The notes under the pieces: model-generated | What the model was told of the DNA's origin: nothing | What the model saw: only the letters and a program-made list of their open reading frames with translations | Database searches by the model: none | Source of the DNA: Candidatus Woesearchaeota archaeon | Lineage (GTDB): Archaea; Nanobdellota; Nanobdellia; Pacearchaeales; GW2011-AR1 | Direction of reading: 5' to 3' | Assembly: GCA_964364885.1 (NCBI GenBank) | Contig: CAYIOA010000001.1 | Span: forward strand, 1 to 56,592 | Length of the DNA: 56,592 nt | Shown: piece by piece, positions 5,421 to 54,584 of the stretch | Layout: every line of letters starts with the position of its first letter | Position numbering within the stretch: position 1 is the stretch's first letter | Program-made: the position numbers and the translations under genes

Positions 5421-5586
5421 AGAATTATGACATATATAACTCTTTTAAGCTTTTCTATAAGTTACCATTATCCAGATATGACTCTGTCTTAAAAAATGGC
5501 AACAAACTTTAAATAACATCTTTCTCAATCAAAACCATGAATTCAGTAGTCCACTTTGAAATTCCTTTTGATGATAAAGCCCGCGT

Positions 5587-5770
5587 AATCAAAAAGTCCT
5601 TGTGCATTACCGCACACTAAAGTGTGCGGTTTGTTGGACTCATCAAAGTCCATAGGACTTTGAGTGCCGTCAAGAATCCGACTTTGGAGGATTCTTGAGG
5701 TTTGGATGTCTAAAGTTGCATTCGTCTGCGGACTTTAGTCCGCAGTTTTCCGCTCAGCAATCTTGACATA
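5587..5770 (+). repeat. Modular nested-hairpin repeat, copy A (long, four-hairpin form)
   Basis: Shares the 5' end AATCAAAAAGTCCTTG, the hairpins CCGCACAC-TAAA-GTGTGCGG and CTGCGGAC-TTTA-GTCCGCAG, and the 3' end CTTGACATAAA with copies at 11159, 41409 and 54462. Has two extra hairpins: CAAAGTCC-ATA-GGACTTTG and CAAGAATCC-(9 nt)-GGATTCTTG. Confidence 0.8.
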
Positions 5771-5807: not shown

Positions 5808-7109
5808 ATGCATCTCGAGTCAAAAGTAAAATCATACCTTGATAAAATAAAAAAAGAAGACAAAAAAATAAACTCATTTCTCCACTTAAATTCCAATGCA
5901 ATTGAAGAAGCAAAAATTATTGAAAGGAAAAAGGAAAAAGGAAAACTCTACGGCAAGATAATAGGAATAAAGTCAAATATAAATGTCAAAGGTCTTATAA
6001 CAAACTGCGCCTCAAAAACGCTTGAAAACTACACCGCCCCTTACGACGCAACTGTAATAAAGAAAATAAAAGATGAAGATGGCTTAATTATCGGCATGAC
6101 GAACATGGATGAATTTGCCGCAGGCTCGTCAGGCGAAAATTCAGCCTTCGGCCCGACGCAAAATCCCAAAGCTCCCGGCAAAATCCCCGGCGGTTCTTCT
6201 TCAGGAAGCGCTGCGGCAGTAGCAGCAGATTTCTGCGACATCTCACTCGGCAGCGACACTGGCGGCTCAATAAGAAATCCTTCAAGCCAATGTGGAGTGA
6301 TTGGTCTGAAACCTTCTTACGGATTAGTCTCCCGCTATGGTCTAATTGATTTATCTATGTCCTTAGACCAAATAGGTCCGATAGCAAAAACTGTCGATGA
6401 CATAGAATTAATGCTGAATATAATAAAAGGCAGAGACGACAAAGACACGACAACCGTAGAATCACAACAAAAAACAAGCAAAAAAGAAGTAACAATAGGA
6501 GTATTAACAATAAAAAATGTAGACAGTAAAATTCAAGAGTTGCTCAATAAAAAAATAGGCTCAATAAAAAGTAAATACAAATGGAAAACAAAAAATGTTA
6601 AAATAAAGCATATTGATTTGGCAGTCCAAACTTATTACTTAATGGTTTATACAGAATTCTTCTCGGCAACAAGACGCTTTGACGGTCGGCGCTATGGAAA
6701 AAAGATAGAAGATTTTTCAGGCGCAGAAGTTTTAAGAAGAATCCTAGGCGGCTCTGAAATTGCAAAAGCAGAATTTGAAGGAAAATACTATGAAAAAGCC
6801 CGCCAAGTCAAAGAACTAATAAAAGAAGAATTTGAATCTGTATTCAAAGAGGTGGACTGCATAATGCTTCCCACGCTTCCAAATCTTCCTTGGGATATAG
6901 GAGCCAAAAAAATGAAGCCGGAAAAAATCTATGCTTATGATGCATTAACAATTCCAGTCAATCTAGCAGAGGCGTGTGCAATCTCTATGCCTGCAGGGAC
7001 AATAAACAAAATCCCAATTGGCTTGCAGATTATCTGCGCCAGAGAACAAGATAGTCTTCTCATAAGTCTTTCAAAAAAAGTTGAAACAACATCACAATTA
7101 AATTTATAA
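5808..7109 (+). CDS. gatA: Aspartyl/glutamyl-tRNA amidotransferase subunit A (amidase family)
   Basis: Amidase signature GGSSSGSAAAVAA and GSDTGGSIRNPS. 433 aa. Confidence 0.85.
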   Translation: MHLESKVKSYLDKIKKEDKKINSFLHLNSNAIEEAKIIERKKEKGKLYGKIIGIKSNINVKGLITNCASKTLENYTAPYDATVIKKIKDEDGLIIGMTNMDEFAAGSSGENSAFGPTQNPKAPGKIPGGSSSGSAAAVAADFCDISLGSDTGGSIRNPSSQCGVIGLKPSYGLVSRYGLIDLSMSLDQIGPIAKTVDDIELMLNIIKGRDDKDTTTVESQQKTSKKEVTIGVLTIKNVDSKIQELLNKKIGSIKSKYKWKTKNVKIKHIDLAVQTYYLMVYTEFFSATRRFDGRRYGKKIEDFSGAEVLRRILGGSEIAKAEFEGKYYEKARQVKELIKEEFESVFKEVDCIMLPTLPNLPWDIGAKKMKPEKIYAYDALTIPVNLAEACAISMPAGTINKIPIGLQIICAREQDSLLISLSKKVETTSQLNL

Positions 7110-7128
7110 CACAAGTTAGTTCTAGAAT

Positions 7129-7218
7129 ATCCTCGTGGTTGCTGGAACTCCTAGAAACCCGCTGGAGGTTTGTATCCTCGTGGTTGCTGGAACTCCTAGA
7201 AACCCGCTGGAGGTTTGT
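7129..7218. repeat. Perfect 2 x 45-bp tandem duplication (ATCCTCGTGGTTGCTGGAACTCCTAGAAACCCGCTGGAGGTTTGT)
   Basis: Units 7129-7173 and 7174-7218 are identical base for base. The repeat ends 2 nt before the ATG at 7221. Confidence 0.97.
7209..7214 (+). promoter_or_regulatory. Shine-Dalgarno-like GGAGGT, 6 nt upstream of the ATG at 7221 (duplicate copy at 7164-7169)
   Basis: GGAGGT followed by TTGTAG then ATG. The same hexamer recurs in the upstream repeat unit. Confidence 0.5.
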
Positions 7219-7220
7219 AG

Positions 7221-7892
7221 ATGGAAATTAAAGATATAAAACTAGATTTCCTAGGGCATTCAGGTTTTCTAATTAACGAAAGTTCTGGAAAAAAGATTGC
7301 AATAGATCCATACAACATTTCGGAAAACATCCAAAAAGTTGATTTTATACTAATAACCCACAGCCATTACGACCATTGCAGTATCAAAGACATAGAAAAA
7401 ATATCTAAGGAAGGCACAATCATTGTTATTCCGCCGGATGCGCAAAGCAAAATAACAAAAATAGAAAATGTAGAAATGCAGATTATTGAAGTAGGTGACG
7501 AGCTGACTTTCGGAAATATAAAAATAGAAGCGCTTCCGTCATATAATGTCGGCAAAGAATTCCATCCAAAAAGCGAGGGCTGGATTGGGTACTTAATAAA
7601 AATCAACAACGTTATCATCTATCATGCAGGTGACACTGATAAAATCCCAGAGATGAATAAATTAACAGGTTACGGAAAACATGGAAATTCTTTTATAACT
7701 CTCCTCCCGGTATCAGGAACATATGTTATGGATGCAGAAGAAGCAGCAGAAGTGGCATCTATTCTAAGTCCAGAAATTGCAATTCCAATGCATTACGGTG
7801 CTGGTGTCGCCGGCACAAAAGAAGACGCAGAGAAATTCTTGAAATTATGCTCTGAGTTGAACATAAAAGCTGAAATTCTGGAAAAGATATAG
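7221..7892 (+). CDS. Metallo-beta-lactamase-fold hydrolase (UPF0173-like)
   Basis: LGHSGFLI near the N-terminus and ITHSHYDHC (HxHxDH metal motif). 223 aa. Confidence 0.8.
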   Translation: MEIKDIKLDFLGHSGFLINESSGKKIAIDPYNISENIQKVDFILITHSHYDHCSIKDIEKISKEGTIIVIPPDAQSKITKIENVEMQIIEVGDELTFGNIKIEALPSYNVGKEFHPKSEGWIGYLIKINNVIIYHAGDTDKIPEMNKLTGYGKHGNSFITLLPVSGTYVMDAEEAAEVASILSPEIAIPMHYGAGVAGTKEDAEKFLKLCSELNIKAEILEKI

Positions 7893-10945: not shown

Positions 10946-11155
10946 ATGACAGAAAAAGTTTCAACAGGTGGCTTGATGAGCTTTAAATATGAAAAAACTC
11001 ATGCTCCAAAACTAAACGAAGATGAAAAAAAAGAAATAGAAAAAGCATATGAAAAGTACTATGAAAGGAAAAGAAAAGAAAAAAAGCGGAGAGTAATTAT
11101 AATATCAATAATAACAGTAATATTGCTTGTCTCAATTTATTTCCTGCTCAAATAA
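10946..11155 (+). CDS. Small Lys/Glu-rich protein with a C-terminal TM helix (tail-anchored type)
   Basis: 69-aa ORF with C-terminal VIIISIITVILLVSIYFLL. No homology recognised. Confidence 0.4.
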   Translation: MTEKVSTGGLMSFKYEKTHAPKLNEDEKKEIEKAYEKYYERKRKEKKRRVIIISIITVILLVSIYFLLK

Positions 11156-11158
11156 AAA

Positions 11159-11272
11159 ATCACAAAGTCCTTGAGTTTTACCGCACCTTAAAAGGTGCGG
11201 TTTGTTTGGACTTTGGGAGGACCGGGAGAAATCGACAGCAACTAACTCCAATCTAAAGATTGGAGATTTCTC
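11159..11272 (+). repeat. Modular nested-hairpin repeat, copy B
   Basis: AATCACAAAGTCCTTG...CCGCACC-TTAAAA-GGTGCGG-TTTGTTTGGACTTTGGGA, then GAGAAAT...CTCCAATC-TAAA-GATTGGAG-ATTTCTC. Ends 12 nt from the tRNA-Asn 3' end. Confidence 0.75.
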
Positions 11273-11284
11273 ACGTGTATTAAA

Positions 11285-11357
11285 CGTCTCGGAGAGGACT
11301 CGAACCTCTGACCCCATGGTTAACAGCCATGTGCTCTGCCAGCTGAGCTACCGAGAC
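11285..11357 (-). tRNA. tRNA-Asn (anticodon GTT), no encoded CCA
   Basis: The reverse complement folds as a cloverleaf. Acceptor GTCTCGG/CCGAGAC, D stem GCTC/GAGC, anticodon stem CATGG/CCATG with loop CTGTTAA, T stem AGAGG/CCTCT with loop TTCGAGT, discriminator G. Confidence 0.93.
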
Positions 11358-41408: not shown

Positions 41409-41515
41409 ATCAAAAAGTCCTTGTATTTTGCCGAAGACTGAAGTCCGCAGTTTGTTTGGATTCATCAAAGATTCTCCTCGCACTTCAGTGCGTGTTTTGT
41501 CAGGAGTCTTGGCAT
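41409..41515 (+). repeat. Modular nested-hairpin repeat, copy C (partly degenerate), between or within the platform genes
   Basis: AATCAAAAAGTCCTTGTATTTTGCCGAAGACTGAAGTCCGCAGTTTGTTTGGATTCATCAAAG...CGCAC-TTCA-GTGCG...CTTGGCATTAAA. Both termini match copies A and D. Confidence 0.7.
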
Positions 41516-54461: not shown

Positions 54462-54584
54462 ATCAAAAAGTCCTTGTTGCTTACCGCACACTAAAGTGTG
54501 CGGTTTGTTTGGACTTTGGGATGTCCAAAGTTGCATTCATCTGCGGACTAAAGTCCGCAGTTTTCTGCTCAGCAACTTTGGCAT
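54462..54584 (+). repeat. Modular nested-hairpin repeat, copy D (canonical two-module form)
   Basis: ATCAAAAAGTCCTTG..CCGCACAC-TAAA-GTGTGCGG-TTTGTTT-GGACTTTGGGA, then CCAAAGTTGC-ATTCAT-CTGCGGAC-TAAA-GTCCGCAG-TTTTCTGCTCA-GCAACTTTGG-CAT. Confidence 0.8.

Follow-up and report, generated by a model that had tools for sequence, protein, structure and literature searches.

A mobile hairpin repeat beside tRNA-Asn in a Woesearchaeota archaeon, likely a PATE-like relative of IS200/IS605 elements

What is the paired-stem repeat that lies between a small protein gene and the tRNA-Asn gene of a Woesearchaeota archaeon, a structured RNA or a piece of mobile DNA? The initial annotation of the window (that is, the whole stretch of 56,592 nucleotides analysed here) had noticed that the stems of this repeat, termed copy B, remain complementary while their sequences differ from those of other copies, had read this as selection on an RNA or DNA fold, and had remarked on the adjacent tRNA gene. 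The window is contig C1 of an assembly (G000) of 814 kb in 68 contigs, with 36% GC and a completeness of 87%, and this contig also encodes aEF-1beta. Here, we followed the repeat through this genome, its relatives and metagenome contigs.

The boundaries of copy B could be drawn from the four copies of its own type in the genome, one further copy in a congener (G020) and an empty site in another congener (G015). The locus is then arranged as follows.

10946-11155, plus strand: conserved gene for a small membrane protein of 69 aa, convergent with tRNA-Asn; a homologous 75-aa ORF adjoins tRNA-Asn in the congener G015.
11159-11278, minus strand: copy B, 120 nt, B-type (type IV).
11160-11218: module 1 of copy B, with the outer stem TC.CAAAGTCC x GGACTTTG.GA around an internal loop and the inner hairpin ACCGCACCT-TAAA-AGGTGCGGT at 11180-11201 (from the fold and covariation).
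11221-11278: module 2 of copy B, with the outer stem CGGGAGAAAT (11223-11232) x ATTTCTCACG (11266-11275), a 13-nt bulge after the 5' arm and the inner hairpin CTCCAATC-TAAA-GATTGGAG at 11246-11265 (from the fold and homology to type II).
11279-11284, minus strand: flank between element and tRNA gene, TTTAAT on the tRNA strand (ATTAAA on the plus strand), whose last four bases, TAAT, fit the T-D-A-T target motif described below.
11285-11357, minus strand: tRNA-Asn (GTT), found by ARAGORN and with the Rfam tRNA model (69.5 bits); a neighbour outside the element.

The stop codon of the upstream ORF occupies 11153-11155, 3 nt before the element, in agreement with the earlier description of copy B as directly following that stop. 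The other end has to be corrected: the element reaches 11278 rather than 11272, and the distance to the 3' end of tRNA-Asn at 11285 is 6 nt rather than 12 nt. The plus strand of 11159-11280 reads ATCACAAAGTCC...GGACTTTGGGAGG...CACGTGTAT, and we infer that the top strand of the element is the minus strand of the window, ACACGTGAG...CAAGGACTTTGTGAT. As a single strand, copy B is predicted to fold into two nested hairpins on either strand (z = -7.6 and -5.9 versus shuffles). The core stem of module 1 is CCGCACCT / TAAA / AGGTGCGG at 11181-11200, extended by a ninth predicted pair to 11180-11201, and its counterpart in copies A and D is CCGCACAC / TAAA / GTGTGCGG. The module 2 outer stem GAGAAAT / ATTTCTC lies at 11226-11232 and 11266-11272 and could be extended to 10 bp with one mismatch, and module 2 of copy D has CTGCGGAC / GTCCGCAG nested in CCAAAGTTGC / GCAACTTTGG. 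All the stems previously quoted for copies A, B and D are present in the sequence.

Copy B belongs to a large repeat family. Searched with a profile of module 1, the 814-kb genome yields about 40 copies, many of them at contig ends, with lengths of 107-183 nt that are too short for a transposase gene. On the plus strand, all copies share the 5' end ATCAAAAA(G/A)TCCTTG, a T-rich spacer, the linker TTGGATG and the 3' end TTG(G/A)CAT, and each module between the shared ends and the linker is composed of an outer stem and a GC-rich inner stem of 8 bp. At least four subtypes are distinguished by their stem cassettes, and that of copy B, with the 3' end CACG(T/C)GTAT, has four copies (copy B, C9:3546, C2:24064 and C32:8310). 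The cassettes move between modules: the pair CTGCGGAC/GTCCGCAG, for example, serves as the module 2 stem in type I and as the module 1 stem in type III, and the module 1 hairpin of copy B recurs identically in copies of 'Archaeon BMS3Abin17', there in combination with an ordinary module 2. The loops, for their part, invert to the reverse complement on unchanged stems (TAAA/TTTA and TGAA/TTCA). Three pairs of copies at unrelated loci are fully identical. Further copies in the window are listed below.

5588-5769, minus strand: copy A, a long form whose middle holds an additional 60-nt module of two hairpins.
41409-41515, minus strand: copy C, degenerate, in the gap that separates the stop of the upstream gene from the probable start of a T2SSF-like gene.
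54462-54584, minus strand: copy D, the canonical two-module form of type I, identical to a copy on contig C52.

The middle of copy A (5640-5700 of the window) appears as a separate mini-element of 55-60 nt with two hairpins, arranged as C-TCA..stem..TGA-TGCCG-TCAAG..stem..CTTGA-GG. The same type is nested at differing places in three other loci (L276, L265 and L283), in L276 within the loop of the module 2 inner hairpin, and its behaviour recalls the small mobile repeats of Haloquadratum for which PATEs are the target. At the edge of copy A, a short ORF at 5538-5621 starts with MNSVVHFEIPFDDKARV, which we take to resemble a glyoxalase/VOC-type N-terminus, and extends into copy A as far as a stop codon in the first loop; a gene that the insertion of copy A disrupted may have left this remnant.

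Then, does the repeat move? The congener G015 carries the convergent pair of tRNA-Asn and the homologue of the 69-aa ORF with a T-rich spacer of 27 nt (TTTTTTCTTAATTTTTTCAAGATTTTC) and no element between them, which is an orthologous empty site. Copy B is flanked by TTTAAT and TTTTTA, and an uninterrupted allele of its own locus would join TTTAAT to TTTTTATTTGAG. The element is absent from the tRNA-Asn trailers of the 14 congeners examined, and among the 40 relatives searched (20 of them congeners) only four carry it anywhere, all of the same genus. It is also found in other Woesearchaeota/Nanoarchaeota MAGs and, by a scan with module 1, on 66 groundwater and other metagenome contigs, where all the copies are gene-less; Hainich well H51 (ERZ1292623) is a source of contigs from the population studied here. 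Note that scanning contigs with the 15-nt 5' end is unspecific: mostly chance bacterial matches make up its 115 hits, and the real ones are five copies in three archaeal loci. The empty site, the patchy distribution and the identical copies at different loci establish that the family is mobile, and copy B itself is very probably the insertion of a selfish mobile repeat.

The position beside tRNA-Asn, which had been implied to be meaningful, is incidental. A copy lies within 50 nt of only 3 of the 26 tRNA genes, against about one expected, and the three arrangements differ, the other two copies being 25 and 41 nt away. Copy B lies where it does because the T-rich trailer of tRNA-Asn (TTTAAT) offered a target in a harmless spacer between convergent genes. 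The tRNA-Asn trailers of congeners are T-rich too and hold the same target motif, that of G002 reading TTATTTTTTTGAT. That copy B marks a tRNA-linked attachment site, or is a scar left by an integrative element targeting tRNA-Asn, would account for a copy adjoining the 3' end of the gene and for the two copies near other tRNA genes. However, no duplicated tRNA 3' segment and no integrase are found nearby, the unit has just 120 nt and is bordered by conserved genes on both sides, some 37 further copies are located away from tRNAs, and the excess of three over about one is not significant. Given the empty site and the distribution across the genome, which largely refute it, this explanation deserves hardly any credence.

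Other observations on tRNA-Asn were made in the congeners. The gene of G013 (L218/L220, G013:C13:57884-58300) is split by about 260 nt, after which two further copies of its 3' segment (GGTTCGAGTCCTCCCCGAGACG) follow, as is typical where an integrative element has used a tRNA gene. In several other congeners, the match to tRNA-Asn exceeds the query by 12-18 nt, and the extra length may represent introns.

Why, then, do the stems stay paired? With more copies aligned, the covariation is strong in both modules, and the earlier statement that complementarity is kept while sequence diverges holds. For the inner stem of module 1 (39 sequences), 95.2% of the cells are paired and 6 of the 8 pairs show changes on both sides, while for module 2 (14 sequences) 97.9% of the cells are paired, with both-side changes in 13 of 21 pairs. 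Values as high were reached by 0 of 500 shuffles in either module, and slid controls are paired in at most 50% and 35% of the cells, respectively. Module 2 types with a short spacer were left out of these counts owing to their misalignment by MAFFT. The outer arms of module 2, collected from this genome, its relatives and metagenomes, comprise 16 haplotypes among 33 distinct sequences, and in 31 of the 33 all nine positions pair, compared with 6.85 of 9 when partners are shuffled. The outer stem of module 1 covaries as well. At its position 9, 22 copies have the pair G-C, 17 have A-T and one has G.T, and its position 5, A-T in most copies, is C-G only in all four B-type copies, a compensated pair that had been overlooked. 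The outer stem of module 2 in the B-type copies shows a compensation from G-C to A-T, as read from the sequences.

Module 2 of copy B had been described as a divergent counterpart of module 2 in copies A and D, to which its inner stem bears almost no resemblance. Its homologue is instead module 2 of type II (CTAACTCCATGCTAAAGCATGGAGTTTT), with an identity of 26/35 in the inner hairpin, and four of the differences form two compensated pairs. Therefore, module 2 is a genuine part of copy B and not an unrelated hairpin that happens to lie beside module 1. The sister copy on C9 is 98.3% identical to copy B, and the sole difference is a dinucleotide in a 5' arm: the sister combines the type I 5' arm with the B-type 3' arm and is mismatched there, whereas the dinucleotide of copy B restores pairing, so that copy B is fully paired.

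The simplest reading of the paired stems is selection for a hairpin that is recognised during transposition, and templated correction from arm to arm probably contributes as well. Because such correction can yield perfectly complementary arms, these need not mean selection alone. The structural half of the earlier conclusion, that of a retained fold, has gained statistical support, and the evidence favours its DNA side. The stems are a clean natural case of covariation without an implied RNA function, which calls for caution in covariation-based RNA discovery.

That the repeats are paralogous genes of a structured RNA, acting as a small RNA, a terminator or an insulator after the ORF stop and the tRNA, would be consistent with the strong covariation, with GC-rich stems followed by T-rich runs on the plus strand, and with the location of copy B, 3 nt past a stop codon and just 6 nt short of where the tRNA gene has its 3' end. 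However, orientation relative to the neighbouring genes is mixed (16 copies antisense, 7 sense and 9 between divergent or convergent genes), copies inside genes are translated through in both orientations, loops flip to their reverse complement, whole hairpin cassettes swap between modules, and the same gene pair has an empty site in a congener. Neither these traits nor the patchy presence among congeners and the target motif on a single strand (see below) would be anticipated for an RNA gene or a cis-regulatory RNA. With the Rfam covariance models no family was found over the element: only the tRNA passes the threshold, and the next best match over the element has 18 bits (E = 0.67). The G.T wobble pairs, 7 versus 10 between the strands, show no asymmetry and are uninformative as to which strand folds. 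Termination in archaea, moreover, requires oligo-T and not hairpins, which counts against a terminator. We regard a structured RNA as very improbable; a by-product role of the insertion as a barrier to transcription or mRNA decay is compatible with the transposon reading developed below. A candidate for a new structured RNA next to a tRNA is thereby removed, and a documented insertion of selfish DNA takes its place.

Some copies are inserted in frame within protein-coding genes, as listed below.

C42:2796-4037, with a type III copy at C42:3454-3566: enolase, the sole one in the assembly, gaining 37 aa (DAKILDKPRTSVRGESWTSKNPDKLRTSVRSKTQGFF) between AASSFF and DKGKY; absent in 15 orthologues.
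C28:10536-10648: small CWYYP-motif protein, gaining 37 internal aa identical to the enolase insert; absent in 2 orthologues.
C15:9584-9699: LivG-like ABC ATPase, gaining 38 aa after residue 7; orthologues uninterrupted there.
C38:7605-7720: SpoIIM-like membrane protein, gaining 38 aa after residue 9; orthologues uninterrupted there.

The enolase insert is located just before the segment FYKDG of the M. jannaschii enzyme (2pa6), has a 9-nt repeat, TTTTTTGAT, at both junctions, and is found at the same locus on a metagenome contig (L310). The inserts in the ABC ATPase and the SpoIIM-like protein are type II copies with a common 1-nt deletion, which brings them to 114 nt and removes an in-frame TAA, and both contain an internal ATG (MHLD) at which translation might start anew. 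In all four cases, the length is a multiple of 3 and the frame of the gene is free of stops, and the copies are read through in both orientations. Such a filter, which keeps copies that are open and in phase, speaks for translation of the inserts and against their removal by splicing.

An intron-like element, cut from the RNA by the archaeal splicing endonuclease for example, would make gene insertions harmless and would explain why they are tolerated in essential genes such as that for enolase; DPANN archaea do possess splicing endonucleases of broad specificity. Splicing, however, would need neither the phase nor the freedom from stops seen in all four copies, and would render the frame-restoring 1-nt deletion in both type II copies needless, and no bulge-helix-bulge geometry is visible by eye at the in-gene junctions. 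Hence, we consider an intron-like element extremely unlikely. Another copy, at C3:37336-37448 in an AMP/thymidine phosphorylase-like gene (C3:36083-37477), replaces the first half of a domain of about 85 residues that is N-terminal in congeners. This case is an insertion with a deletion that leaves most of the N-terminal domain missing, and not a clean in-frame insert.

How does the element choose its sites? On the minus strand, the left flank of 35 copies reads T (34/35), then D (T, G or A, with a single C), A (35/35) and T (35/35), immediately before G(C/T)CAAG, and a T-rich tract is found farther upstream. The tetranucleotide is TTAT in 19 copies, TGAT in 10, TAAT in 5, among them copy B, and TCAT in one. 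The right end is constant, ...GGA(C/T)TTTTTGAT, and closes in TGAT in all copies. The flanks show no target duplication, although a 2-nt duplication of AT is compatible with the sequence since AT is invariant at both junctions. At the position that mirrors the invariant T, T occurs 24 times, A 12, C 5 and G 0, so that the target is strand-asymmetric. The ends share 4/15 positions in inverted register, or 7-10/15 when the invariant AT is counted. The first three bases of the plus-strand unit (ATC) and its last three (CAT) can pair with the linker GGATG (through GAT and ATG, respectively). On the minus strand, the linker CATC could pair with GAT|G, the junction that an excised circle would have. 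Because these end-linker pairs are invariant, covariation speaks neither for nor against them.

Neither a Y1 gene (PF01797) nor a TnpB gene (PF07282, PF01385) is found in this genome, with its 87% completeness and 68 contigs, whereas 14 of the 20 congeners have Y1 transposase genes, including three of the four carriers of the element. Searches for Y1_Tnp, OrfB_IS605 and the TnpB Zn-ribbon in this genome and the element-bearing congeners gave no parent element. Inspection of the flanks of seven IS200 copies in congeners showed end hairpins unlike those of the element and no ends in common with it, and nhmmer with the module models returned nothing convincing beside them. No autonomous element with these ends occurs among the loci or the 66 metagenome contigs, and no element copies lie beside the RAYT-like gene of the congener G006.

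One congener locus was looked at apart. L066 (G014:C61, about 700-900 in locus coordinates, 1851-2060 in the reverse complement) has five consecutive hairpins just downstream of a decayed IS200-type tnpA. Their stems, such as AAAAATCC/GGATTTTT and CCAAGAATTT/AAATTCTTGG, resemble the outer stems of the element, and the stretch ends in ...CTTGACAT (...GGTTCTTGACAT). As the end of a parent IS200 it was rejected, its orientation being wrong for a simple left or right end, and it is read as a neighbouring copy. The hairpin stretch may nevertheless hint at how the family arose.

Could the repeat be a classical MITE, moved by a DDE-type transposase that duplicates AT and binds imperfect terminal inverted repeats (ATSMMAAGATYCTTG-like)? 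The AT that is invariant at both junctions, the inverted similarity of 7-10/15 that includes it and the lack of a Y1 transposase in this genome would agree with such a mechanism. However, the target is strand-asymmetric, the T at -4 having no mirror A (T 24, A 12, C 5, G 0), and the weak inverted similarity of the ends would arise in any case from two hairpin modules that resemble each other. A non-systematic look revealed no DDE element that has such termini. A MITE is consequently improbable, though less so than a structured RNA.

The best explanation, which we hold with good confidence, is that copy B is a non-autonomous, hairpin-ended, PATE-like element, that is, a gene-less relative of the IS200/IS605 'peel-and-paste' elements, in a DPANN host; to an IS200/IS605-type mechanism specifically we lean only slightly. 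By such a mechanism, insertion would take place just 3' of a T-rich T-D-A-T motif on the presumed top strand (minus in the window), without target duplication. The hairpins would be the feature recognised by a single-strand Y1 transposase, and pairing with the linker, acting as a guide, would draw both ends to one point in the folded single strand. The palindromic arms might meanwhile correct each other by templated events.

PATEs are known from Haloquadratum walsbyi and other haloarchaea and are derived from IS200/IS605-type transposons (Dyall-Smith et al., 2011, PMC3119063). Like the present element, they are too short for a transposase, have mutually similar palindromes at both ends, cause no target duplication, follow a one-sided short targeting oligonucleotide, occur in many copies, differ between strains and have other small repeats inserted into them (PMC3119063). 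As in PATEs and IS200/IS605 elements, a short targeting sequence (4-6 nt) lies immediately 5' on one strand, which is T-D-A-T here. Unlike in PATEs, no IS605-type parent with matching ends was found for the present element, the palindromes, each built of an outer stem, an internal loop and a GC-rich inner stem, are nested and extend right to the ends of the unit, the modules trade stem cassettes, the host belongs to the DPANN archaea, and some copies lie in frame within genes.

IS200/IS605 elements insert 3' of TTGAT (ISDra2) or TTAC (IS608), without duplication, and have subterminal palindromes (PMC8612924). Like these elements (IS608 and ISDra2, with the Y1 HUH TnpA), the repeat has subterminal hairpins and a strand-asymmetric target, the motif T-D-A-T, often TTGAT, and its right end is TTGAT, whereas tnpA and tnpB are lacking from both the element and the genome. 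The ends of IS608 lie some distance from its hairpins, with a guide tetranucleotide 5' of the hairpin. Here, by contrast, the cleavage sites would be at the feet of the hairpins and could pair with the central linker rather than with a guide 5' of each hairpin.

REP/BIME/REPIN sequences (RAYT, Y1) are likewise palindromes dispersed outside genes, their stems covary above a short conserved foot motif, and a single-strand Y1 mechanism is presumed for them too. They differ in having a GTAG-type tag, a RAYT gene flanked by copies and one palindrome instead of two modules. The Rickettsia palindromic elements (RPEs), of about 110-150 nt, are intergenic or in frame in unrelated housekeeping genes, to which they add a short peptide (PMC10969869). 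The likeness is one of behaviour only, palindromic repeats lying in frame in protein-coding genes with the ORF kept: the sequences are unrelated, the hosts are bacterial and archaeal, respectively, about 4 of about 40 copies are in frame here compared with nearly half of the RPEs, and the one-sided target motif is a feature of the present element. The literature searched contained no paper that links DPANN archaea with such elements.

Alternatively, the differences from IS200/IS605 might mark a distinct, DPANN-wide class of hairpin transposons rather than decayed IS200/IS605 ends, with termini that fold onto the central CATC linker, with a not-yet-recognised enzyme as the mover, and with stop-free frames that seed peptide loops in essential proteins. 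We think this doubtful, if less so than a MITE; were it true, the class would be an archaeal counterpart of the Rickettsia palindromic elements.

For the PATE-like element preferred here, the practical consequences are several. Reduced DPANN genomes can hold dozens of active hairpin elements, and these break assemblies, many copies being found at contig ends, and can mislead gene callers on start sites.

A repeat of another kind was also seen in the window. Positions 7128-7217, between ORF 5808-7109 and ORF 7221-7892, are a perfect tandem duplication of a 45-nt unit (TATCCTCGTGGTTGCTGGAACTCCTAGAAACCCGCTGGAGGTTTG).
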